The notes beneath the pieces were generated by a model that saw only the letters and a program-made list of their open reading frames with translations, had not been told where the DNA came from and did no database searches. From assembly GCA_964202905.1 (NCBI GenBank), contig CAXNJO010000010.1:20228-84227 (forward strand): a DNA stretch of 64,000 bases. The letters run 5' to 3'. Source of the DNA: Polyangiales bacterium. GTDB taxonomy: Bacteria > Myxococcota_A > Polyangia > Polyangiales > JADJQN01. Below are positions 20,838 to 57,301 of this stretch, piece after piece. The translations under genes were made by a program, and so were the position numbers. The stretch's first letter is position 1, and the number at the start of each line of letters is the position of its first letter.

Positions 20838-21527
20838 ATGGTAGACGTCGGACACCCTGACTCCAAGAAAGAAGTCGCGTCGCCGACCCGCGGCGCGGGG
20901 CCCGGTGCCCCGGGCTATGCTCCGCCCGCCGTGTGGACCGGAGCCGCCGCCACGATCGCCGCGTACATGCTCGGTTCAGTGTCGTTCGCGATACTCGTCG
21001 CGCGGCGGGCCGGGGTCGACCTCCGGGCTGCGGGGAGCGGCAACCCGGGCGCCACGAACGTCGGGCGGGTGCTCGGCCGGCGCGCGGGGCGACTGGTCCT
21101 CGCGCTCGACGCATTGAAGGGAGCGGCGCCGGCGCTCGCGGGGGTGCTTGCGTTTGGCGCGACCGATGCGCGGACGGCGGCGATTGGGGTCGCAGCGGTC
21201 GTGGGCCATGTCTGGCCGCTCTGGCATGGGGGGCGAGGCGGGCGGGGCGCCGCGACGGGGTTGGGCGTGCTGCTCGCGACGGCGCCGCCCGCGGGCGCGC
21301 TCGCCGGGCTGGGGTACGCGGTGGCGCGGCGGGCCTCCGGGCGGGCGAGCGTGGGGTCGCTCGCGGGGGCACTGCTGGGGAGCGCGGCGCTGATCGCGTG
21401 GGAGCAGCACGCGCCGGGGCACGCGACGCCGCGGAGTTGGATGGCGCTCGGGCTGCTCGCGGTGGTCGTCGTCGCGCACACGCCGAACCTCGCGCGGCTC
21501 GCGCGGGGGCAGGAGCCGCGGACATGA
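20838..21527 (+). CDS. plsY: Glycerol-3-phosphate acyltransferase PlsY
   Basis: Matches are YMLGSVSFAILVAR, SGNPGATNV and GHVWPLW. The N-terminal 30 aa look like an over-extension, and GTG at 20931 is an alternative start. Confidence 0.85.
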   Translation: MVDVGHPDSKKEVASPTRGAGPGAPGYAPPAVWTGAAATIAAYMLGSVSFAILVARRAGVDLRAAGSGNPGATNVGRVLGRRAGRLVLALDALKGAAPALAGVLAFGATDARTAAIGVAAVVGHVWPLWHGGRGGRGAATGLGVLLATAPPAGALAGLGYAVARRASGRASVGSLAGALLGSAALIAWEQHAPGHATPRSWMALGLLAVVVVAHTPNLARLARGQEPRT

Positions 21528-24007
21528 GGCGGGCGACGCGCGGACTCACCGCGCTCCTGGCGGCGGTCGCGCTCGTCGTGGCCTGCGGGTGCGGCGGCCC
21601 TCCGCAGGCGGTGCGGGTCGTGACGCCCGCGGCAGCGCGCAGGGTTGCGCCGACAGCTGCCCCCCCGCCGACGCTCGTGCGCGTCGCGGGCGCCGGGACG
21701 CTCGCCCTGCCCCGCGCGACGCCGGACGCCGTGCACCTCGCGCTCTTCGTCGATGCCGGCTGGCGGGACGCGACGCCACCCCAACTCGCGACGGCCACGG
21801 CGTGGCTCGCCGCGGCCCGCAGCCCGGGCGTCACGGCGCGCGTCGAGCCGGATCTCGTCGCCTGGTCCGTCGATTGCCCGCGATCGCGGCTCTCGGCATG
21901 CACCGATCAGCTCGCCGGGATGCTCGCGCTGCGCGAGGCCGACGAGGACGAGCTCGTGGCCGTGCGACGCGCGCTCGTCGAGGCACGAAGGCGGGCGCGG
22001 ACGGACGAGGCGCGCACCGCCGATGGGCTCGCGGTCGCGGCGCTCCTCGATGTGCCGCAGGCAGGCGCGTTCGGGGAGGCCGACGACGACGCCCGCGTCG
22101 ATGCGGACGCGGTCGCGCGGTTCGCGGGGCAACACCTCGGTCCCGCCCGCGCGCTCTTCGTCGCGGCCGGCGACGTGGACGCGGCGACGCTCGCGGCGGC
22201 GGTCGAGACGGCCCTCGCGGGGGTGCCCGACGCAGCCGCGACGCGGCGCGGGTCGATGCCTCCGGCCGCGCGGCGCAGCGGGGCGCCGCCCGTGCGCGTC
22301 GTCGTCGGCGAGTCGGAGGTCGTCAGCGTCGCGCTGCGGGTCGACGACGCCGGGCGCGCTCGCGCGATCGCCGCGCAGATCGCCGCGGAGGGGACAGCGC
22401 CCGACGCGACGGTGCGTGCGTTCGCGTTGCGGGGCGGCGGGGTCGTGCTGCTGCGGCAGGCGGGTCGTCGACGCGGCGCCGACGGGGCCGCGCGCTGGGC
22501 CGCGCACACCGCCGCGGGGCTCGAGATGGTGCGCAGGGAGGTCGTCGACGCCGCGCCCGCGCCGGTCCCCGACGCCCTCGACGCGCTCGTGCGCGCGCAC
22601 GGCCGCGCGTTCGCGACGGGCGACACCTGGCCCGGGATGGCGCAGGGGCGGCACGCGAGCGAGATGCCGGAGGACACGCACGCGATCGCCGCCGGGGTCG
22701 TCGTGCGCGGAGAACGGACGCGGCGACTGCGCGGGCCGGACCCGGACGACGCGCTGGCCCACGACGTGGAATCGTCGATGGTCGCCGCCATCGACGCGCG
22801 CCTCGGGGCGCTCGACGACGCGGACGACGCGACGGGCGACGGGACGCCGCTGCGCAATGGCGCGCGGCTCGTCGTGCAGGCGCTGCCGGGTGCGGGTGAG
22901 CGCGCGCTCGCCGTGCGCTTCGCGGCGGAGCTCTCCGCGGAGCACGCCGGCGTCCTCGGCCGCGCGGGACTCACGGCGGAGGCGCTCGCGGTCGCATGCC
23001 GAGTGCAACTGGGGCGCGGCGGCGCCGCATTGCAGGCGGTGGTGGGCGCGGGCTCGTGGGGCGTGCTCGCGACGGCGCGGAACGACGACGCGCTCGTCCA
23101 CGCGCTGCGCTGCGTGCTCGACGCGTTGCCCGACGACGCAGCCATCGACGAGGCGCGGCGACGACGGGTGGCATCGCTCGCGCCGGCCAACGCGCCCGCC
23201 CTCCACGCGCGCGCGCTCGCGGCCCGCGCGCTCGTCCCGGCGACGCCAGGCCTCCTCGCGCCAGAGGGCACCGCGGAATCGGCCGCGTCCGTCCCAGCGT
23301 CGGAGGTGCGGTCGCTGCTCGCGCGGTCGCGCGTCGGTGCACGCGCGCACGTCGTGTGGGCGGGTGACGGCGGCGCAGGCGGTCAGGCTGCGCAGGTCGC
23401 GCGCCGCCTCGCCGGGCTCGACGGGGGAGCCCCGTGCGCGCCGCCGACGCACGGGGACGCAGCGATGGAGGACGTGCTCGCCGCCGAGGGGCCGGGCCCC
23501 GGCGTTCGTGCCGTGATCGCGCTCCGCGCAGCGGCGCCCCGTGCACCGCATGCCCAGGGCGACACGCCGCCCGACGACGGCCTCGACGCGCAGGCCTTCG
23601 CGCTCTCCGTCGCCACGCTCCTTGGGGAAGCCCCGGGCGTCCGCGTCCTCGCGGCCGATGGCGCGAGGGTCGGCCCGACCGACGTCGCCGCGTGGATCGC
23701 GCTCTCGCTCGACGAGTCCGCGCTCGCGGCGCTCGCCGTCACGACGCGGCAGGCGCTCGCCGTGCTCGACGCCGACCCACTCGGCACCGACGCCGTCCGG
23801 CGCACGCGCGACCAGCTCGCCGCCCTCGACGCCGCCTCCCGCGCGCAGCCGGCGATCGTCGCGGATCGGCTCGCGCGTGCCTCCGCGGAGGGTGTCGACG
23901 CGACGCACGCCGCGGGGGACGACGCCTCGCTCGTCCGCGTCGTCGACGCGCTCGCCGCGGCGCGCTTGCACGTCGTCGTCGCGCGCCCCGCGAGGCCCGA
24001 TCGTTGA
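21524..24007 (+). CDS. Large lipoprotein, pitrilysin (M16)-like two-lobed architecture without an HxxEH zinc motif
   Basis: ATG 21524 overlaps the plsY stop (ATGA). The N-terminus is [24 protein letters not shown] (lipobox), and the product is 827 aa. The M16 resemblance rests on general layout only. No HxxEH was found by eye. Confidence 0.45.
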   Translation: MRRATRGLTALLAAVALVVACGCGGPPQAVRVVTPAAARRVAPTAAPPPTLVRVAGAGTLALPRATPDAVHLALFVDAGWRDATPPQLATATAWLAAARSPGVTARVEPDLVAWSVDCPRSRLSACTDQLAGMLALREADEDELVAVRRALVEARRRARTDEARTADGLAVAALLDVPQAGAFGEADDDARVDADAVARFAGQHLGPARALFVAAGDVDAATLAAAVETALAGVPDAAATRRGSMPPAARRSGAPPVRVVVGESEVVSVALRVDDAGRARAIAAQIAAEGTAPDATVRAFALRGGGVVLLRQAGRRRGADGAARWAAHTAAGLEMVRREVVDAAPAPVPDALDALVRAHGRAFATGDTWPGMAQGRHASEMPEDTHAIAAGVVVRGERTRRLRGPDPDDALAHDVESSMVAAIDARLGALDDADDATGDGTPLRNGARLVVQALPGAGERALAVRFAAELSAEHAGVLGRAGLTAEALAVACRVQLGRGGAALQAVVGAGSWGVLATARNDDALVHALRCVLDALPDDAAIDEARRRRVASLAPANAPALHARALAARALVPATPGLLAPEGTAESAASVPASEVRSLLARSRVGARAHVVWAGDGGAGGQAAQVARRLAGLDGGAPCAPPTHGDAAMEDVLAAEGPGPGVRAVIALRAAAPRAPHAQGDTPPDDGLDAQAFALSVATLLGEAPGVRVLAADGARVGPTDVAAWIALSLDESALAALAVTTRQALAVLDADPLGTDAVRRTRDQLAALDAASRAQPAIVADRLARASAEGVDATHAAGDDASLVRVVDALAAARLHVVVARPARPDR

Positions 24008-24043: not shown

Positions 24044-24104
24044 TTGACGGGTCAAACCGTGCGTGTTAATCCCGGCGCGTGCCGAGCGGTGAATCGCCAT
24101 TCAG
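24044..24104 (+). promoter_or_regulatory. Candidate promoter plus palindromic operator of the TetR-etfBA operon
   Basis: The elements are TTGACG (24044-24049), a 17-nt spacer and TAATCC (24067-24072). The predicted TSS coincides with ATG 24079, implying a leaderless mRNA. The inverted repeat GTGAAT-CGCC-ATTCAG lies at 24089-24104. Confidence 0.45.
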
Positions 24105-24873
24105 TTCGCGGGTCCGCAAGCCGCGCGCTGTGTCGTCGACCCCCGAGATCCCCGCGCCCTCCGCCCTTCCGCGCGCCGACACCAAGGCACGCGCGAAGGC
24201 AGCCCCCGAGTCGTCCGAAGCCCCCACCGAGAAGGGCCGCGGCGCAGGCACGCCGGACAAGCGCGAGCGCATCCTCCGCGCCGCGATCAAGGTCTTCGCG
24301 CGGAAGGGCTTCCACGCGACGCGCGTCAACGAGATCGCGAAGGCCGCCGGCGTCGCGGACGGCACCATCTACCTCTACTTCAAGAACAAGGACGACGTGC
24401 TCGTCTGCATCTTCGAGGACCGCATCACGCGTCTCCTCGAGGTGCTGCGCCGCGAGCTCGAGCGCTCGCCGTCGTTCGAGGAGCGCATGCGCCGGATCGT
24501 CGGCCTGCAGCTCGGGCTGCTCGAAGGGCAGCGCGACCTCGCCGAGGTGATCACCGTCAACCTCCGCCAGTCGTCGAAGCTGCTCAAGCAGTACGCGACC
24601 CCCCTCTTCGTCGAGTACCTCGAGGTGCTCGCGAGCGTCATCGCCGACGGGCAGCGCGAGGGCGTCGTCCGCACGGACGCGCACCCGCGCATCCTCGCGC
24701 GCGCGTTGTTCGGCGCGCTCGACGGAGTCGCGCTCACCTGGGCGCTCGGCGGAGCCGAGCCCGGGACTCTCACGAAAGCTGCCGTCCAGATCACGTCCGT
24801 GTTCCTCGACGGCATCCGCGTCCGCTCTCCGCAGTCACACGCTCTCTCATCACACTCCCCGGAGGAACCGTGA
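24079..24873 (+). CDS. TetR/AcrR-family transcriptional regulator (FadR-like by context)
   Basis: The HTH reads RILRAAIKVFARKGFHATRVNEIAKAAGVADGTIYLYFKNKDD. The gene overlaps etfB by 4 nt. A roughly 55-aa low-complexity N-terminus leaves the start uncertain. Confidence 0.85.
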   Translation: MPSGESPFSSRVRKPRAVSSTPEIPAPSALPRADTKARAKAAPESSEAPTEKGRGAGTPDKRERILRAAIKVFARKGFHATRVNEIAKAAGVADGTIYLYFKNKDDVLVCIFEDRITRLLEVLRRELERSPSFEERMRRIVGLQLGLLEGQRDLAEVITVNLRQSSKLLKQYATPLFVEYLEVLASVIADGQREGVVRTDAHPRILARALFGALDGVALTWALGGAEPGTLTKAAVQITSVFLDGIRVRSPQSHALSSHSPEEP

Positions 24874-25703
24874 AGATCCTCGTTCCAGTGAAGCGGGTCG
24901 CCGACCCGGACAACGCCAACAAGGTGAAGGTTGCCGCCGACGCCTCGCGCGTCACCACGGACGGCCTCGAGTGGAAGATCAACCCCTTCGACGAGTACGC
25001 CGTCGAAGCGGCGCTGCGCCTCAACGAGAACGCGAAGACGCAGGAGAAGCTCGGCGAGACCATCGTCGTCTCGATCGGGCCGAAGGACGCGGCGCAGACG
25101 CTGCGCCAGGCGCTCGCGATGGGTGCGGACCGCGCGGTCCACGTGCTCGCCGAGGACGAGCAGCTCGACTCGTTCGTCGTCGCCCGCGCGCTCAAGGCCA
25201 TCGTCGACAAGGAGCAGCCCGACGTCGTCGTACTCGGCAAGCAGGCCGTCGACGGCGACTCCAACACCGCGGGGCAGATCCTCGGTGAGTTGCTCGGCTG
25301 GCCGGTCGCGTCGTTCGCGGCGACGATCGAGACGGGCGACGCGGGCAAGAGCTTCGTCGTCGGCCGCGAGGTCGACACGGGCGTGCTCAAGGTGAAGGTC
25401 ACCGCGCCCGCCGTCATCACCGTCGACCTGCGCATCGTCGCGCCCGCGTCCGTGCGCAACGGCGCGACGCCCGCCGATCACGCGTACGGCGAGGGCGCGC
25501 GCTACGCCTCGCTCAAGGGCATCATGGCCGCGAAGAAGAAGCCGATCGACGAGCAGACGCTCGCCGCGCTCGGCGTCGACGCGACGACGACGTCCCGCTA
25601 CACGAAGTTCGAGCTGCCGCCCGCGCGCAAGGGCGGCGCGAAGTTCGTCGCCGACGTCAACGAGCTCGTCTCGCTCCTCCAGAGCGAGGCGAAGGTCCTC
25701 TGA
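24870..25703 (+). CDS. etfB: Electron transfer flavoprotein beta subunit
   Basis: 277 aa. Matches include [29 protein letters not shown] and [17 protein letters not shown]. Confidence 0.93.
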
Positions 25704-25744: not shown

Positions 25745-26719
25745 ATGACGGACGTTCTGGTCATCGCAGAGCTGCTCGACGGCAAGGTGCGCAAGACGAC
25801 GCACAGCGCCATCACCCTCGCCAAGACGATCGCCGCCGGGACGGGCGGCGCCTTCGACGTCCTCGCCATCGGCGACGGCGCGAAGTCCGCCGCGGCCGAG
25901 CTGACGGGCTTCGGCGCGCGCAAGATCTTCGCCACGCAGATCGACGGGGGCTACCTCGCCGAGAAGTACGCGCCCACGGTCGCCTCGATCGGCGGCGGTT
26001 ACGGCGTGCTCACCGTGACCGCGAGCACCTTCGGCAAGGACCTCGCGCCCCGCGTCGCGGCGCGCCTCGGCGCGGGCGTCGCGAGCGACATCAGCGGCGT
26101 CACCGTCGACGGCGGGACGCTCAGCTACAAGCGGCCGATGTACGCGGGCAACGTGTACGGTCACGTGCAGATCACGACGGCGACCCAGGTCGTGACGCCG
26201 CGTCAGTCGGAGGTCGCGCCTGCGCAGCCCACGGGCGGCGCGAGCCCGATCGAGGACCTCGCCCTGGTGGCGGGCGGTGCGGCGAGCGGGCGCATCGAGT
26301 TCGTCGCGCTCGAGCAGAGCACGAAGTCCGCGCGCCCCGAGCTGAGCGAGGCTGCGACCGTCGTGTCGGGCGGTCGCGCGCTGAAGAGCGCCGAGGGCTT
26401 CCAGACGGTACTCGAGCCGCTCGTCGACGCCTTCGGCGCGGCGATGGGCGCGAGCCGCGCGGCGTGCGACGCGGGCTACGTGCCCAACGACCTGCAGGTC
26501 GGCCAGACGGGCAAGGTCGTCGCCCCGAAGCTCTACGTCGCGGTCGGCATCTCGGGCGCGATCCAGCATCTCGCGGGCATGAAGGGTTCGAAGGTCATCG
26601 TCGCGGTCAACAAGGACAAGGAGGCGCCGATCGCACAGGTCGCCGACTACTTCCTCGTCGCGGACCTGTTCAAGGTCATCCCCGAACTGACGGACGCGGT
26701 CAAGAAGGCGCGCGCCTAG
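25745..26719 (+). CDS. etfA: Electron transfer flavoprotein alpha subunit
   Basis: 324 aa. The FAD-binding C-terminus reads [44 protein letters not shown]. Confidence 0.93.
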
Positions 26720-43004: not shown

Positions 43005-43895
43005 TCAGCGGCGGCGAAGACCGAGCAGCGTGAGCGGCTCGTCGGAGCGCGCGAAGGAGAGCGTCGCGCCCATCTCGACGTTGACCGCGGCGTGCGGCCC
43101 GTCGAGGAAGAGCCGCGCCGCGCGCATCTTGCTCACGACGCGCAACGTGTCGTCGGGCGCGACCAGGCCGCGCATGTGGCGGTAGCGGCGGCCATCCGCG
43201 AGGTAGGGCTCGCGCACGACGAACTGCAGACGCTGCGAGCCCACGGGGAGCACGCGCCCGCCCGCCGAGCGCTGCGCGGCCGTCGAGCCCGCCGCGGGGC
43301 CGACCCACAGGCCGCTCGAGCGCTGCTCCTCCTCGACGCCCGCGAAGCGAAGCAGGTAGCGCGAGGTCGCGGCCGGACACTCGTGGCAGAAGAGCGCGTC
43401 GTTGAGCACGCGGTTCGAGACCTCGGCGCCGTCGAGCTCGACGCGCATCCGCGTGAGGCGCGTCGCGCGGACGCGACCCGCGAGCGCGTCCGCGAGCACG
43501 TCGCCGAGCACGTCGCGCGTGCCGGCGCAGAAGAAGCCGACGCTGTCGCGCGGGGCGGTGTTCACGGCGATCACGGGCACGTCGGGGCCGACCGCGTGCG
43601 ACGCCCAGAGCAGCGTGCCGTCACCGCCGAGCGTCACGACGAGATCGAAGCCCTCCGCCGCGCCCACCTCCGCGCGGTAGCGGAAGACGGCGCGGGCGCC
43701 GAGCGCGCGGAGCAGCGCGCGCGCCGCCACGACCGTGCCGACGTGATCCTCGTGCGCGGCGCGGAGCCGCGCGACGGTGACGTGGCGCTCGCGGAGCAAC
43801 GCGGCGACCCGCGCCGAACGCCGCTCGCGCACGTAGATCTGAAACGCGGACTTCTTGTAGATGACGAGGACGCGCGGGCCGGTGCGGCGCGTCAC
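43005..43895 (-). CDS. nadK: NAD kinase
   Basis: GTG 43895-43893 overlaps the Nudix stop (GTGA). Matches are LVVTLGGDGTLL and a NAD-kinase-like C-terminal half. Confidence 0.85.
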   Translation of the reverse strand: MTRRTGPRVLVIYKKSAFQIYVRERRSARVAALLRERHVTVARLRAAHEDHVGTVVAARALLRALGARAVFRYRAEVGAAEGFDLVVTLGGDGTLLWASHAVGPDVPVIAVNTAPRDSVGFFCAGTRDVLGDVLADALAGRVRATRLTRMRVELDGAEVSNRVLNDALFCHECPAATSRYLLRFAGVEEEQRSSGLWVGPAAGSTAAQRSAGGRVLPVGSQRLQFVVREPYLADGRRYRHMRGLVAPDDTLRVVSKMRAARLFLDGPHAAVNVEMGATLSFARSDEPLTLLGLRRR

Positions 43896-44584
43896 GGCGT
43901 CACGCTCCGCTCGGCGAGGCGGCGCAGCGCGACCTCGGTCTTGACGTCCGCGACGCGCCCGTCGCGCACGGCCGCGAGCGCGGCGGCGAGCGGGACGAAA
44001 CACACGACCGCGTCGGCCTCGACCGGCGAGCCGTCCTCGGTGGGCGTGCCGGCCGCGCCCGGATCGACGTGCGCGACGAGGAAGTGGACCTTCTCGGCGA
44101 GCACGCCCGGGCTGAGCACCACCGCGGGGCCGAGCGCACTGAATGACGATTCAGCGACGTCGAGGCCCGTCTCTTCGAGCGTCTCGCGCGCCGCGCAGGC
44201 GCGGAGCCCCGCTTCGCCCCGCTCCTCGGGCTCGACGAGCCCCGCGGGCACCTCCCACACGACGGCGTGGGGCGACGGCTCCGCGAGCGGGAGCGCGTAC
44301 CCCGGCCGAAACGCGAGCGGGGGTCGCAGCGCGCTGCGCAGGCACACGCGCGGCGCCTCGCCCGGGCCCCCCGGCGCGACGAGCACGATCGCGACGGCGT
44401 CCATCGCGTCGCGCTCGACGAGGTCGTAGCGGTAGGGGCGGCTGAGCGCGCCGTCGGGGCGCCGATTCTGCAGCGTCACGCGGCGCAGGCGGAGAAACCC
44501 CTCGTCCCCGCGCAGCGACCCGGAGTGATCCGCGAGCACGTCGACGTCGATGCGCGGGAGATCGGGGAGGGAATCATCAGACAT
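43892..44584 (-). CDS. Nudix hydrolase (ADP-ribose pyrophosphatase-like)
   Basis: ORF 43892..45082 was trimmed to ATG 44584-44582 (MSDDSLPD). The Nudix box reads GLVEPEERGEAGLRACAARETLEETGL. Confidence 0.8.
   Translation of the reverse strand: MSDDSLPDLPRIDVDVLADHSGSLRGDEGFLRLRRVTLQNRRPDGALSRPYRYDLVERDAMDAVAIVLVAPGGPGEAPRVCLRSALRPPLAFRPGYALPLAEPSPHAVVWEVPAGLVEPEERGEAGLRACAARETLEETGLDVAESSFSALGPAVVLSPGVLAEKVHFLVAHVDPGAAGTPTEDGSPVEADAVVCFVPLAAALAAVRDGRVADVKTEVALRRLAERSVTP
44139..44154. other. Copy of the recurrent palindrome CTGAAT-GACG-ATTCAG (perfect arms), inside the Nudix CDS
   Basis: Read directly from the sequence. See the findings for the motif family. Confidence 0.5.
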
Positions 44585-45536: not shown

Positions 45537-46901
45537 ATGACGCCCCGCTGCGCGCACGCCCCGCTCGCCCTGCTGGTCGGCCTCGCCGCCGCGCTGTGTT
45601 CGACCCGCGCGCACGCGCAGGCCGCGGCCCCCGTCGAGGCCGCGGAGTCCGCGCGGCTCTCGACGCTCTCCGGCGCCGACCGCGCCGCGCTCGCCCCGCT
45701 GCTCGCGCGCGGCCCCGTCGCGCTCGTCGAGTTCACCGAAGGCGACGCGCTCCCCGCGATCCTGCTCGCCGCGGAGGTCGACGCGCCCGCGGCCACGCTC
45801 GCCGCGGTCGTCGGGGATCCGGCGGGCTATCCGCGCTTCATGGGCGTGCTCGACTCGGTCGCGGTCACCGGACGGCACGGCGGCTCGCTCTCCTACGACT
45901 GGACGTGGCGGACCGCGATCTTCGAGCTGCGCGGCTCGAACGTGATGACCCGCGCCGAGCCGCCGCCCGGGCACCCCGAGCGTGGCTGGCGCTTCGGCAT
46001 CCGCGCGACGGGTGGCGATCTCGGCACGGGGCGCTTCCTCTGGAGCGTCCTGCCCGTCGACGACACGCACAGCCTCGTGACCCTCGCGACGCGCCTCGAC
46101 CTGCGCGACGCGAACTACCTCGCGCGGCAGATGTCGCAGGCGAGCAAGAGCGTGAACCGCTCGATCAACCTCTCGCTCGGCTTCGTGATGCTGCTCGGCG
46201 CGCGGCACGAGGCGCAGCGCCTCGCCGGTCACGCGCCCACGCGCGCGCACCGACCCGGCGACGCCCTGCCCGCGAGCGGGGTCGACCTCGATCGGCTCGC
46301 GCCGCTGCTCGCGCGCGGCGACCTCGTCGCGCTCACGCTCGACGGCGACGCCCTCGACCACGTCACCGCGATCGCGCGGACGGGCACGGCGCGCGACGTC
46401 GTCACCCCCGTCGTGACCGACCCGCGCGCGTTCGGCAGCGCGCTGATGCCCGGCAGCCAGGCGAGCGTGGTCGGCGTCGACGAGCCCGGAGATTGCGCGC
46501 CCGGCGCCGCAGACGCGCGCTGCGCCGCCCGCGGGACGCTCTTCGACTGGTCGATCGACATCCCGATCATCGGCACGCAGGGGCGCATGCGACTCACGCC
46601 CGCGGACGACGCCGGCGACGTCGTCGAGGTCGCCGGCGTGAGCGGCGCGCTGCACACGGGCCGCTGGCGGATCGAGACGCGGACGCAGCCGTGGGGCGAG
46701 GCCGTGGTCACCGCGGTCGGCCGCTTTGATCCGGGCGACACGACCTGGCTGCTCCGCGGCGTGGTGCGGAGCAGCGCGGACTTCGGCGCGGGGCTCGCCG
46801 CGGCCTCGGAGCTCATGCTCGTCCGCGCGATCCGCGCCCGCGCGATCGACGCGCAAGAGGCCCGGATCGCGGCCGCGAGCGCCGCCGTGATCGCGCAGTG
46901 A
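45537..46901 (+). CDS. Secreted protein with two SRPBCC (START/polyketide-cyclase-like) domains
   Basis: 454 aa with a signal peptide. Two similar halves each begin ..LAPLLARG(P/D)(V/L)VAL... The SRPBCC assignment comes from overall pattern only. Confidence 0.5.
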   Translation: MTPRCAHAPLALLVGLAAALCSTRAHAQAAAPVEAAESARLSTLSGADRAALAPLLARGPVALVEFTEGDALPAILLAAEVDAPAATLAAVVGDPAGYPRFMGVLDSVAVTGRHGGSLSYDWTWRTAIFELRGSNVMTRAEPPPGHPERGWRFGIRATGGDLGTGRFLWSVLPVDDTHSLVTLATRLDLRDANYLARQMSQASKSVNRSINLSLGFVMLLGARHEAQRLAGHAPTRAHRPGDALPASGVDLDRLAPLLARGDLVALTLDGDALDHVTAIARTGTARDVVTPVVTDPRAFGSALMPGSQASVVGVDEPGDCAPGAADARCAARGTLFDWSIDIPIIGTQGRMRLTPADDAGDVVEVAGVSGALHTGRWRIETRTQPWGEAVVTAVGRFDPGDTTWLLRGVVRSSADFGAGLAAASELMLVRAIRARAIDAQEARIAAASAAVIAQ

Positions 46902-46921: not shown

Positions 46922-46937
46922 CTGAATGGCCATTCAT
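46922..46937. other. Copy of the recurrent palindrome CTGAAT-GGCC-ATTCAT; TGAATGGCCATTCA is a perfect 14-bp palindrome
   Basis: It lies 21 nt after the stop of 45537..46901, in a 3'-3' intergenic region. GC flanks extend the palindrome to about 26 nt with one mismatch. Confidence 0.5.
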
Positions 46938-47044: not shown

Positions 47045-47080
47045 GCGCGGCGCAGTCAGGGCGCGCGGCGCAGTCAGGGC
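47045..47080. repeat. Perfect 18-nt tandem duplication just beyond the PEGA gene stop
   Basis: gcgcggcgcagtcagggc occurs twice (47045-47062 and 47063-47080). A degenerate third copy follows and contains the actual stop codon (tca at 47092-47094). Confidence 0.85.
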
Positions 47081-47091
47081 GCGCGCCTCCG

Positions 47092-48138
47092 TCAGAACGT
47101 GAGGTGCGCCGAGACGCCGCCGCCGCTCGGCCCGACGACCGGGGCGATGCGGAGGCGCGCCGTCGTCGCTGCGGCCTCGCCGGCCGACGCGTCCTCGTCC
47201 TCCTCGTCGCCGGAGGCGAGCTGGAGCACGAGCGCGGTCACGAGCCCCGCGATGGCCACGCCGAAGCCCACGTCCGCGAAGAGCGCCAAGCGCTCGCCGC
47301 GGTCCGCGATCGCCTCGCTCGGCGCGGCGTCGAAGTCGCTCTGCTCCGAGAGCGCGAGGAAGCCGAGCACGGTGCCGGCGACGAGCCCGCCCGCGCCGAC
47401 ACCCGCCGCGATCCACACGCCCGCGCCCGGCCCCTCGGACTCCGCCTCCTCCGCCGCGGGCGGCGCGACGGGCTCCGGCTCAGCGGGCGTCTCCTCCACC
47501 GGCGGCGCCGCCGGACGAGCCGTGAGCGCGGGCACCGCGAGCTCCTGCCGCGCGCCGAAGCCGACGGTCACGGTCTGCGACGCGGGCTCGTAGCCTTCGA
47601 GGGAGAGCACGATCGTGTGCTCCCCCGGGGCGGCGTCGACGTCGGCGGGCGTCACACGCCCGGTGTCCGTCCCGTCGAGGCGGATCGCGGCGCCGGCGGG
47701 CTCGCTGCTCACGGCGACGACGCCCGGGCGCGTGCGCAGCTGGTCGATGCGGGCCTGCACCGCGGCGCGGTCCGGCGCGTCGGCGCGCAGCGAGAGGTAG
47801 CGCTCGAGCGTCGCGACGGTGTCGACGATGCGCCCGAGGCGCTCCTGGGACTCGGCGATGCTGATGAGCACGACGGGGTTCGGCACGCTCGCGAACGCGG
47901 CCTCGAAGCGGGCGAGCGACTCGGCAAACTTGCCCTCGCGGAACAGCGTCTGCCCTTCGCCGTAGGCTGCGCGGGCGGCCGTCGTCTGCTCGGCCGTGGG
48001 GCCCGCAGGCGCCGCCGTGCGACCACCACGGCGTTGCGCCTCCGCGCGCGACGCGCCCAGCAGCGCCGACGCGGCGAACATGGCCGCAACCACCCAAACC
48101 ATCCCGCGAGACCCCGAGCTGCGAAGCACGCCGTTCAT
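47092..48138 (-). CDS. PEGA-domain protein with a TPR-like N-terminus and a C-terminal membrane segment
   Basis: 348 aa. The PEGA-like block reads VAVSSEPAGAAIRLDGTDTGRVTPADVDAAPGEHTIVLSLEGYEP. A signal peptide and a TM helix (VWIAAGVGAGGLVAGTVLGFLAL) are present. Confidence 0.7.
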   Translation of the reverse strand: MNGVLRSSGSRGMVWVVAAMFAASALLGASRAEAQRRGGRTAAPAGPTAEQTTAARAAYGEGQTLFREGKFAESLARFEAAFASVPNPVVLISIAESQERLGRIVDTVATLERYLSLRADAPDRAAVQARIDQLRTRPGVVAVSSEPAGAAIRLDGTDTGRVTPADVDAAPGEHTIVLSLEGYEPASQTVTVGFGARQELAVPALTARPAAPPVEETPAEPEPVAPPAAEEAESEGPGAGVWIAAGVGAGGLVAGTVLGFLALSEQSDFDAAPSEAIADRGERLALFADVGFGVAIAGLVTALVLQLASGDEEDEDASAGEAAATTARLRIAPVVGPSGGGVSAHLTF

Positions 48139-54375: not shown

Positions 54376-55889
54376 CCCGCAAGCGCCATCGTCGTACGGA
54401 AGAGCAGGAAGCCGCACTCACGGCGGTCGAGCAGGAGGCTGCGCTCGCCGCGGGCACCGAGCCCACGGAGGCCCCGGACCCGCGCAGCGTCGCGCGGGCC
54501 TCCCGCGGGCAGCGTCGCCGCACGCTCGGGCCGCTGCCGGCGGGCGCGGTGTTCGCGCGGCCCCTCGTCGCGATCGTGGGTCGCCCCAACGTCGGCAAGA
54601 GCACCCTCTTCAACCGCCTCGCGGGGCGGCGGCTCGCGATCGTCGAGGACACGCCGGGCGTCACGCGCGACCGGCACTACGCCGACACGCTCATGTACGG
54701 ACGCGAAATCGTCCTCGTCGACACGGGTGGCTTCGACCCCGAGAGCGACGACCCGATGATGGGCAGCATCGCGCGGCAGGTGCGGCTCGCGCTCGCCGAG
54801 TGCGATCTCGTCGTGTGCGTGCTCGACGCCTCGGTCGAGCCGCAGACCGCGGATCGCGAGGCCGTGCGGCTGCTCCGCGAGAGCCGCAAGCCCGTGATCT
54901 TCGTCGCGAACAAGAGCGACACGCCGCGCCTCGCGCTCGAGGCGAACAGCTACTACCGCCTCGGCGTCGAGACGCTCATCCCCGTCTCGGCGCTGCACGG
55001 CCACGGCACCGGCGACCTCGAGCAGGCCGTGCTCGACGCGCTGCCGCCCGCCGAGGCGCTCGCCACGCTGCCGCGCCTCGACGGCGTCGCGCGCGTCGCG
55101 ATCACGGGCAAGCCCAACGCCGGCAAGTCGTCCCTCGTCAACCGGCTGCTCGGGCAGGAGCGCCAGATCGTCGACGACCGCCCCGGCACGACGGTCGACG
55201 CCGTCGACGCGCTCCTCGAGCGCGACGGCCGCCGCCTGGTGCTCATCGACACCGCCGGGATCCGCCGCAAGAGCCACGTCGACGAGAGCGTCGAATCGCT
55301 CGCGGTGCTGCAGGCGATCCGCTCGATGGAGCGCAGCGACCTCGTCGTGCTGCTGCTCGACGCGAGCGTCGGCGTCGCCGAGCAGGACGCGAAGATCATC
55401 GGCCTCGCCGAAGACCGCGGCCGCGCGATCGTGATCGCGCTCAACAAGTGCGACCTCCTCGACGACGCCGCGCAGCGCCAGGCCACGACGCGCGCCCGCG
55501 ACGTGCTCGCCTTCGTGCCGTGGGCCCCGCTGCTGCGGATCAGCGCGCGCTCGGGGCGCGGCGTGAAGAAATTCCTCACCGCGATCGAGGCCGCCGTCGA
55601 GGCGCACGGCAAGCGCATCACGACCGCGCAGCTGAACCGCTTCTTCGAGGAGGTGCTCGACCGGCACCCGCCCCCGGTCCATCGCGGCAAGCCCGTGCGG
55701 CTCTACTACGTCACGCAGACGCAGGTCTCGCCGCCGACGTTCACGATCATCGCGAACTACCCGGACGCGGTGCACTTCTCGTATCAGCGCTACGTCGTGA
55801 ACCAGATCCGCGCGGCGTTCGGCTTCGAGGGCACCCCGGTGCGCGTGTTCTACAAGCCGCGGCGTCGGCGCGAGGGCAGCCAGGGCTGA
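54372..55889 (+). CDS. der: Ribosome-associated GTPase Der (EngA)
   Basis: GTG 54372 overlaps the era stop (GTGA). There are two GTPase domains (GRPNVGKSTLFN, GKPNAGKSSLVN) and a KH-like C-terminus (VRLYYVTQTQVSPPTF). The upstream 2.3 kb of ORF 52065..55889 is a shadow ORF. Confidence 0.93.
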   Translation: MTRKRHRRTEEQEAALTAVEQEAALAAGTEPTEAPDPRSVARASRGQRRRTLGPLPAGAVFARPLVAIVGRPNVGKSTLFNRLAGRRLAIVEDTPGVTRDRHYADTLMYGREIVLVDTGGFDPESDDPMMGSIARQVRLALAECDLVVCVLDASVEPQTADREAVRLLRESRKPVIFVANKSDTPRLALEANSYYRLGVETLIPVSALHGHGTGDLEQAVLDALPPAEALATLPRLDGVARVAITGKPNAGKSSLVNRLLGQERQIVDDRPGTTVDAVDALLERDGRRLVLIDTAGIRRKSHVDESVESLAVLQAIRSMERSDLVVLLLDASVGVAEQDAKIIGLAEDRGRAIVIALNKCDLLDDAAQRQATTRARDVLAFVPWAPLLRISARSGRGVKKFLTAIEAAVEAHGKRITTAQLNRFFEEVLDRHPPPVHRGKPVRLYYVTQTQVSPPTFTIIANYPDAVHFSYQRYVVNQIRAAFGFEGTPVRVFYKPRRRREGSQG

Positions 55890-55901
55890 ACCGTCATTCA
55901 G
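55886..55901. other. Copy of the recurrent palindrome CTGAAC-CGTC-ATTCAG, overlapping the der stop codon
   Basis: Read directly from the sequence, in a 3'-3' intergenic region. Its reverse complement differs from the 44139 copy by one base. Confidence 0.5.
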
Positions 55902-55947: not shown

Positions 55948-56799
55948 TCAGAGCGTCTGGCCGCTTGCCCCGGTGGGCGGCGCGGGCGGGAGTACAAACG
56001 GTGCCGGCGCGGGCGGCGCGAAGGGAGCGGGCACGGCCGCAGGCGGCGACACGGCCGGCGGGCGCGCGGGCGCTTGCGCGAGCAGCCGGTCGATCGCCCC
56101 GCGGTCGAAGCCGAGCAGGAGCCGGCCACGCACGTCGATCACGGGGATGCCCGTCGGGCGGAGACCCTGCGCGGCCGCCTTCTGCATCATCTCCTGCTGC
56201 GCGCCCGGGTCGCGCTCGACGTCCTTCTCGACGAAGGGGACGCCGCGCGAGCGCAGGTACGCCTCGGCCTGACGGCACGCGCCGCACCACGAGGCGCCGT
56301 AGACGACGACGTCGGCGCTCGCGTCCCCCGTCTGCGCGGCCGTGGCCGCTGCGGCGCCGCGGGCGTCCGCGAGCAGCGCTTCGAAGGACGCGCGGGCCAC
56401 GCGACGCACCACGTAGCTGCCGTCCGCGCCGGGCGCCCGCAGGTCCGCGAGGTAGACCCACGCAGGGTCGAGGCGCGCCTCGGGCGCGACCGCGAGCGAT
56501 TCGACGCGCACGTACTGACGATGCGCGTCGGGCACGTCGGCGCGGCGCGGCGCGGGGTGCGGGCCCTCCTCATCGAACCAGACGAGCAGCAAGCCCTCGA
56601 GATCGCCGCGCACCGCGAAGGGCGGACGCACGACCGCGGCCTCGGACACCGCGGCCGCGGGGGCGTCGGCGCCCGGCACGTCGCCGCCCTCCGTGGATGC
56701 CCCGCCGCCGCACGCGGGCGAGGCGGCGAGGGACGCGGCGACGAGCAGCCGGACGACGGCAGGGAACCAGCGAGCGACGAGGCGGCGACTGCAGAGCAC
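55948..56799 (-). CDS. Glutaredoxin/NrdH-like thioredoxin-fold lipoprotein
   Basis: ORF 55948..57084 was trimmed to GTG 56799-56797 behind a GGAGG Shine-Dalgarno. A signal peptide with Cys is present (LLVAASLAASPACGGG). The active site reads VVVYGASWCGACRQAEAYL..GIPVIDV. The tail is Pro-rich. Confidence 0.7.
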   Translation of the reverse strand: MLCSRRLVARWFPAVVRLLVAASLAASPACGGGASTEGGDVPGADAPAAAVSEAAVVRPPFAVRGDLEGLLLVWFDEEGPHPAPRRADVPDAHRQYVRVESLAVAPEARLDPAWVYLADLRAPGADGSYVVRRVARASFEALLADARGAAAATAAQTGDASADVVVYGASWCGACRQAEAYLRSRGVPFVEKDVERDPGAQQEMMQKAAAQGLRPTGIPVIDVRGRLLLGFDRGAIDRLLAQAPARPPAVSPPAAVPAPFAPPAPAPFVLPPAPPTGASGQTL

Positions 56800-56830
56800 G
56801 GGCGACCTCCGGGCCGGCAGGATGGCCCCG

Positions 56831-57301
56831 CTACGGCGCGTGCGCACGCCCGCCGAAGCGCAGCGCGAGGCTGCGCTGGCCGTCCTGACAGGCCGGGAAG
56901 AGCGCGCGCGAGCGGGCGATCGCCTGATCCGAACGGGCGATGGCGCCCGCGATGCGCTCCGCGGCGTCCGGGGCGAGCTGCGCGCCGCTCGCCGTCGCCC
57001 GCTCGAGCGCGGCGCGGGCCCCCTCCTGCTCCTGCTCGGCCGTGAGCAGCGCGTCGTGCGCGCGGACGCAGGCGTCGCGGACACGCACGACCTCCGGCGC
57101 CGCGAGCCCCAGCCGCCCGACGGAGTCGAGCGCGCGCCGCCGCAGCGCGACGGGGCCGTCGTCCTCGACCCGCGCGAGCCGATCGAGCAGCAGCTGCGCC
57201 TCGTTGCGCTCGGCGTCCTCGCAGCCCGCGCCGAGCACCGCCGCGAGACCGAGCGCGACGGCGAGCAGGCGGAGCGGGAGCGCGGGCGGGCGGGCGGGCA
57301 T
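56831..57301 (-). CDS. Helical lipoprotein (function unknown)
   Basis: 156 aa with the lipobox LGLAAVLGAGC. The body is an Ala/Arg-rich helix with 3 additional Cys. Confidence 0.5.
   Translation of the reverse strand: MPARPPALPLRLLAVALGLAAVLGAGCEDAERNEAQLLLDRLARVEDDGPVALRRRALDSVGRLGLAAPEVVRVRDACVRAHDALLTAEQEQEGARAALERATASGAQLAPDAAERIAGAIARSDQAIARSRALFPACQDGQRSLALRFGGRAHAP

Follow-up and report, generated by a model that had tools for sequence, protein, structure and literature searches.

A repeated palindrome in a Polyangiales genome as a predicted FadR/YsiA-type TetR operator, with lineage-specific copies outside promoters

Why does one short AT-rich palindrome recur, nearly unchanged, in DNA that is 72.7% G+C, and what would read it? 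Here we address this question for a 64,000-nucleotide stretch of a Polyangiales genome, which we refer to throughout as the window. Our best explanation, to which we assign a probability of roughly 0.85, is that the copies are dimer sites for a FadR/YsiA-type TetR regulator, with the copy at 24089 acting in autoregulation and the other three being additional sites outside promoters. The copies are as follows:

24089..24104: predicted FadR box 1, GTGAATCGCCATTCAG, one mismatch, 26.6 bits on a matrix from other genomes
44139..44154: predicted FadR box 2 (the focal copy), CTGAATGACGATTCAG, perfect 6-bp arms, 27.6 bits, the top score in the window
46922..46937: predicted FadR box 3, CTGAATGGCCATTCAT, one mismatch, 24.2 bits
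55886..55901: predicted FadR box 4, CTGAACCGTCATTCAG, one mismatch, 21.5 bits

The pattern searched was CTGAATNNNNATTCAG (CTGAAT-N4-ATTCAG), with 0 to 2 mismatches allowed. At up to one mismatch there are exactly four copies in the window against 0.00 expected from 100 dinucleotide-preserving shuffles, and 0/100 shuffles yield even a single match at this stringency. Allowing two mismatches gains no copy in the window (0.24 expected), and the four copies therefore form a tight class, all of them fitting xTGAA(T/C)-N4-ATTCAx, with a palindrome consensus of (C/G/A)TGAAT-N4-ATTCA(G/T). A sequence-only reading had described the perfect 6-bp arms at 44139-44154 and the near-identical copies at 24089, 46922 and 55886, and had judged four copies unlikely by chance from an assumed A/T of about 0.14 and G/C of about 0.36. 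All of this holds, and the composition that we measure (A 0.137, C 0.365, G 0.362, T 0.135) is close to the assumed one. A chance or compositional origin for the four copies has the shortness of the motif on its side and nothing more. The shuffles speak against it, as do the conservation of all four copies in relatives and the background in related high-GC DNA, which is about 0-1 such site per 608 kb. On this measured background, three extra copies per 64 kb have a Poisson P of 2e-4 to 1e-3, and we give a chance origin next to no credence. The motif is real, is not due to chance, and is accounted for by a known regulator family.

The repeated unit is also no longer than it appears. When the flanks of the four copies are aligned, no similarity is seen beyond the motif, which is therefore a short motif and not a piece of a longer repeat; a longer repeat or MITE was rejected on these grounds. 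The sequence-only reading had further pointed to a GCCGAGCG prefix shared by the 44139 and 24089 copies. The window has 66 copies of this 8-mer, roughly one per kb, and its offset from the box differs between the two sites (0 versus 2 nt), so we regard the prefix as a chance feature of GC-rich DNA.

A candidate reader of the motif is encoded beside the first copy, which sits in the 123-nt gap 5' of a TetR-family gene. The locus comprises:

24044..24071, plus strand: putative fadR promoter, with a -35 hexamer TTGACG at 24044-24049 and a weak -10-like element, GTTAAT/TTAATC, at 24065-24071
24130..24873, plus strand: fadR, 247 aa, Pfam TetR_N and TetR_C_4 (YsiA-like), the predicted binder of the boxes
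24870-25703, plus strand: etfB, Pfam ETF, directly 3' of fadR and co-directional with it
25745-26719, plus strand: etfA, Pfam ETF_alpha, co-directional with fadR

A further plus-strand ORF at 20933-24007, of up to 1024 aa, has strong coding GC3 and no Pfam or NCBIfam match.

The association of box and gene extends well beyond this genome. We compared 80 loci around orthologues with 79-40% identity, drawn from Myxococcota, Desulfobacterota, KSB1 and others, of which 78 were testable, asking for TGAAT-N4-ATTCA with at most one mismatch in the 250 nt that precede the conserved core of the regulator. Such a box is present in 72/78 orthologous loci (binomial P~5e-153), and the genes etfB-etfA follow the regulator directly in at least 31. 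The 16-mer of the window's 24089 box is found unaltered in one of these loci, L001. Among loci with a G+C of at least 0.6 the box is present in 38/43, with one single other site in 608 kb. That lone site (CTGAATGGCTCTTCAA, L011:6464-6479) is itself a second FadR box, 29 nt 5' of etfB; in this locus etfBA is not adjacent to fadR, with other genes in between.

This distribution bears on the regulator families that the sequence-only reading had proposed. LexA boxes (the Cheo type, GAAC-N4-GTTC, and the M. xanthus type, CTRHAMRYBYGTTCAGS) and CRP/FNR sites (TTGAT-N4-ATCAA) share short inverted arms and a 4-nt spacer with the palindrome, and an SOS box or a CRP/FNR site draws on that superficial likeness of architecture only. 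The arm sequences differ: those of the window are TGAAT/ATTCA, and not GTTC, ATCAA or the half-sites of TGTGA-N6-TCACA, the other CRP/FNR form considered. No site fits CTRHAMRYBYGTTCAGS at up to two mismatches, and in those 72/78 loci the box travels with the TetR gene and not with lexA, recA or crp. We consider either assignment extremely improbable. What survives of the earlier proposal is the dimeric transcription factor site as such, which corresponds to the 6-4-6 repeat of one FadR dimer, along with its mention of a neighbouring TetR as a candidate, which the tracking of the box with a FadR/YsiA-type TetR gene bears out.

The position of the box relative to promoter elements is likewise shared among relatives. 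A TTGAC -35 hexamer lies 27-52 nt 5' of the box in 65/73 orthologous loci (P~1e-94), and in the window the box begins 17 nt downstream of the -10-like element. With the -35 and the weak -10-like element both 5' of it, the box would lie over the transcription start region. A strict E. coli-type sigma-70 scan of the fadR upstream region calls no promoter and the -10 is atypical, so the fadR promoter is inferred from comparative evidence only. Judging from the comparison of loci, the 24089 copy is the predicted autoregulatory, promoter-proximal operator of fadR-etfBA.

The form of the box varies with lineage. Low-GC relatives carry double boxes of the ATGAATGAATAATCATTCAT type, while the repeat is single in the window and in most high-GC Myxococcota; at the window sites there is no second half-site 4 bp away, and so no 21-bp double box. 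Additional boxes in low-GC loci precede genes for glutamate synthase, PPDK and a DHODB-like Fe-S protein. We set these aside as a guide to regulon content, and consider them uninformative because chance matches are frequent at low-GC composition. In a Polyangia-type subgroup of seven loci (L019, L022, L024, L026, L027, L028 and L033), an asymmetric variant, GTGAATCCTCACTCAG, is found upstream of the TetR gene; an ACTCA arm replaces ATTCA, often with ATGA just before, and the variant is compatible with the degenerate ATGA(A/G)T half-site and with a remnant of a second one.

The regulator itself has the features expected of a protein that would read this box. The window TetR is identical to a public protein, P0001, and its relatives, among them a Sandaracinus amylolyticus protein with 71% identity, are named 'fatty acid metabolism transcriptional regulator'. 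Its best PDB matches are 1vi0 and 3whb (B. subtilis YsiA/FadR) and 5gp9/5gpc (B. halodurans FadR) at E~1e-33, with the next TetR at E~1e-17. In NCBIfam the best family is likewise Bacillus FadR (NF053878), with 160.2 bits against 64.9 for the next family. The equivalog cutoff of NF053878 is 200 bits, and at 160.2 bits the protein is therefore a FadR-like homologue and not a certified equivalog.

In the structure of B. halodurans FadR on DNA (5GPC), one dimer occupies each 16-bp inverted repeat, which consists of ATGA(A/G)T half-sites with 4 bp between them; Gly42 and Tyr45 read bases, and Gln29, Val30, Ala40, Thr43 and Tyr47 touch the backbone (PMC5397183). The window protein and Bacillus FadR have the same recognition helix, AGVADGTIYLYF. 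Six of the seven DNA-contacting residues are identical to those of B. halodurans FadR, including the base-contacting Gly42 and Tyr45. The window equivalents of the FadR contacts are R65, V66, A76, G78, T79, Y81 and Y83, with Gln29 to R65 the sole change, and these columns are invariant across 19 orthologues. Recognition of the box by the window TetR is, on these comparisons, well supported.

Its ligand is a separate matter. The residues that anchor CoA in B. subtilis FadR (R116, N120, R150, R153, E162' and Y174') correspond to K153, T157, R187, A190, G199 and G212 in the window protein. R191 adjoins A190, and overall about two of the six anchors are kept. Because so few of the CoA-anchoring residues are conserved, the fatty-acyl effector that analogy with Bacillus FadR would suggest is uncertain. 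At its N-terminus the window protein is also longer than Bacillus FadR by about 42 aa (24130-24255), a stretch rich in Pro, Ala and Lys, and among aligned FadR orthologues the N-terminus differs in length and sequence.

Would the same protein also read the other three copies? We scored the window with a matrix of 34 unique operators, all taken from other genomes, the window being excluded. The next best position in the window after the four boxes reaches 5.2 bits, and the mean maximum over 200 simulated windows is 10.1 bits. We weighed whether a different protein, for instance a paralogous TetR, might read the extra copies, or whether they might serve titration or nucleoid organisation. Such a role would suit copies that are not at promoters and that cluster within 12 kb. 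The extra copies nonetheless fit the fadR-operator matrix (27.6, 24.2 and 21.5 bits, against 26.6 at 24089), and copies in sister lineages also match extended GAC...GTC flanks that were not used in finding them. The gene map of the window is GC3-based and annotated with Pfam, and among the roughly half of its genes that are annotated no second FadR-like TetR is seen. Another reader or another such role seems to us distinctly unlikely, and binding of the window's own FadR-like regulator at 44139, 46922 and 55886 is likely.

Two of the extra copies lie in gaps between convergent genes:

45537-46901, plus strand: 454-aa gene with strong coding GC3 and no Pfam or NCBIfam match
47092-48138, minus strand: PEGA-domain gene, converging on the 454-aa gene, with the 46922 box between them
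55948-56847, minus strand: glutaredoxin-like gene (grx), converging on der, with the 55886 box in the gap

The 46922 box is 21 nt past the stop of the 454-aa gene and faces the 3' end of the PEGA gene, and the 55886 box overlaps the TGA stop codon of der/engA (55887-55889). Together, boxes 46922-46937 and 55886-55901 bracket a divergent operon pair at both of its outer 3' ends, PEGA-kinase-FGE-sulfatase-lgt on the minus strand and era-der on the plus strand. Sister loci for the extra copies came from metagenomes; NadK of L081 is 89% identical to that of the window, and Der of L161/L163 is 86% identical. Perfect-armed equivalents of the 46922 box, with different spacers, are present in L081 and in L161/L163, in intergenic DNA that is otherwise unalignable among these and the window. 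L161-L164 have a perfect CTGAATCGCCATTCAG between der and grx; the distance from the box to the grx stop is 46 nt in these loci and 47 nt in the window. Their der gene ends in a C-terminal tail region that is longer than, and different from, that of the window, and the box is 56 nt past the der stop. The bracketing arrangement is the same in L161, with boxes at L161:2789-2804 and L161:11558-11573. The extra boxes are missing from more distant relatives, whose protein identity is at most 84% and some of which have a changed gene order. Between the 46922 box and the PEGA stop, at 47050-47085, an 18-nt unit (GCGCAGTCAGGGCGCGCG) occurs twice in perfect tandem, within a stretch of about 110 nt that is absent from L161.

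Copies at gene 3' ends invite a reading at the level of RNA, as a hairpin or terminator, or a reading as the core of some larger repeated or mobile element. The motif is self-complementary, two copies do lie at gene 3' ends, and in the window the 46922 palindrome reaches 13-nt arms by way of its (GC)n flanks. That arm extension is conserved in neither L081 nor L161, though, and flanks are conserved neither between copies nor between lineages. Folding energies at the copies are no better than those of shuffles (z -1.2 to +0.4), and the extra copies have no terminator-like T-run and no Rfam match. The arms are constant and the spacers vary freely, as is characteristic of sites bound by a protein. 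An RNA element or repeat core is accordingly very improbable in our judgement, and a FadR dimer site remains our preferred reading for these copies as well.

No -35 TTGAC or promoter-like element is found near 44139, 46922 or 55886, and no obvious beta-oxidation genes flank these three boxes, whose neighbours are Nudix/nadK, PEGA and der/grx. No regulatory target is therefore evident for them. Being intra-operon or between convergent genes and with no nearby -35, they are not classical promoter operators. One proposal is that FadR bound at the extra copies would act as an acyl-ligand-responsive roadblock or boundary element, controlling read-through and antisense transcription and not promoter firing. 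It would account for the placement of the 46922 and 55886 boxes, which mark precisely both outer 3' ends of the divergent operon pair and each of which faces a gene converging from outside, in L161 as in the window. It would also suit box arms that are under purifying selection at sites where neither a promoter nor an intrinsic terminator, an Rfam family or a stable RNA structure is found. Against it, there are just two such gaps plus one intragenic site, the sites are confined to one small clade, and roadblock termination by TetR-family proteins is not an established mechanism for FadR. We hold this proposal to be unlikely. The wider scenario, that one Sandaracinaceae lineage recruited FadR boxes to non-promoter sites as ligand-responsive roadblocks or insulators, at which a TetR dimer would govern read-through, antisense transcription or intra-operon polarity, is in our view similarly doubtful. 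On that scenario, the focal intragenic copy would be the product of several substitutions against codon preference.

The focal copy differs from these in lying within a coding sequence:

43892-44584, minus strand: Nudix hydrolase, Pfam NUDIX, with weak NCBIfam matches to YffH/AdpP-type nucleoside diphosphatases
43005-43895, minus strand: nadK (NAD kinase), Pfam NAD_kinase, its start overlapping the Nudix stop by 4 nt

The box is within the Nudix ORF, 244 nt 5' of the nadK start and in the same operon, very near the distance of about 245 nt given in the sequence-only reading, which had also placed it in coding sequence. Its codons, GCT-GAA-TCG-TCA-TTC-AGT, encode A-E-S-S-F-S, and four are rare in the window: GCT makes up 2.1%, GAA 10.8%, TCA 1.8% and AGT 1.5% of the codons for their own amino acids. 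Given the peptide, the probability of a perfect motif is about 1e-5. L081 and L082 carry the focal 16-mer unchanged, whereas L161 (GCGAAACGACGATGCGG) and the outgroup L084 lack it, which places its gain within the clade of the window and L081; on this distribution the focal copy is a recent gain. The window, L081 and L161 are about equidistant, at 81-82% DNA identity. That the window and L081 share the 16-mer is of only modest significance (0.82^16, about 0.04). Clustering of differences from L161 at the focal site is marginal (Fisher P=0.056), and we therefore do not claim positive selection there. Codon usage is a stronger argument for the focal site than sequence conservation.

We considered an internal promoter at the focal site and rejected it, since neither strand shows a TTGAC or a promoter-like element. 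As the effect of this copy, the likeliest would be a FadR roadblock or some other modulation of transcription from the Nudix gene into nadK, and such modulation is possible. An ATG within the focal palindrome opens a 100-codon ORF (44143-44445, plus strand) antisense to Nudix; its third-position G+C looks low by eye, and it is probably not coding.

Taken together, these observations suggest a model in which one dimer of the TetR repressor encoded at 24130-24873 would bind each palindrome. By analogy with Bacillus FadR, the repressor on the 24089 box would occlude transcription of fadR-etfBA, and a fatty-acyl ligand would free it from this operator. The copies at 44139, 46922 and 55886 would be additional FadR boxes of the high-affinity type, which arose within a Sandaracinaceae lineage of narrow extent, about that of a genus, and are kept by selection. 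What was an anonymous repeated palindrome now has a concrete regulator and mechanism, with binding predicted. The regulator family is already known; what stands out as odd is the presence of selected, lineage-specific predicted FadR boxes off promoters, one of them in a coding sequence with rare codons. These non-promoter copies offer a small, testable case of transcription factor sites evolving outside promoters. Chance matches to so AT-rich a box are almost absent from GC-rich genomes, and regulon prediction should therefore also be straightforward in these mostly uncultured organisms.

How does this predicted system compare with those already described? The operator of Thermus thermophilus FadR, reportedly 5'-TTRNACYNRGTNYAA-3', is unlike the window box. 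That protein (3ANG/3ANP; PMC5597230) is similar in being a TetR-family regulator of fatty-acid degradation, and is a much weaker relative of the window TetR (E 3.4e-11 vs 1e-33). Another comparison is AibR of M. xanthus, a myxobacterial TetR-like protein that senses an acyl-CoA (isovaleryl-CoA) and has a palindromic operator. AibR binds DNA when ligand-bound, and its operator, ACCTACCG-N2-CGGTAGGT, is unrelated to the window box in sequence and spacing, on which grounds we rejected it as the identity of the box (PMC5389471). PsrA and FadP (both TetR) and FadR (GntR) of Proteobacteria have the same role and belong to different orthologous groups (PMC5343134), and the window TetR scores just 24.5 bits against the PsrA model in NCBIfam. 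The same survey describes no YsiA-type FadR regulon in deltaproteobacterial lineages (PMC5343134), and our search of an incomplete literature collection found no description of the box in Myxococcota or other deltaproteobacterial lineages.

The nearest parallel is FadR (YsiA) of Bacillus. Both systems have an xTGAAT half-site, a 6-4-6 inverted repeat per dimer, an autoregulatory box 5' of fadR, and a regulator linked to etfB-etfA. They differ in the extent of the operator: in Bacillus a dimer of dimers sits on a double box of 21 bp, in which one repeat is shifted by 4 bp against the other (in the B. subtilis consensus, WTGAATGAMTANTCATTCAN, two such repeats share a 4-bp overlap), whereas the window has a single 16-bp repeat. 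The outer base of the half-site is C or G in the window and in high-GC Myxococcota, compared with A in Bacillus. The window protein further departs from Bacillus FadR in its 42-aa N-terminal extension, its sub-cutoff score and the loss of most CoA anchors, and the window in having three copies at non-promoter positions. Across these differences, the operator code of Bacillus FadR, xTGAAT-N4-ATTCAx read by an identical recognition helix, appears to extend to Myxococcota, Desulfobacterota and other phyla.
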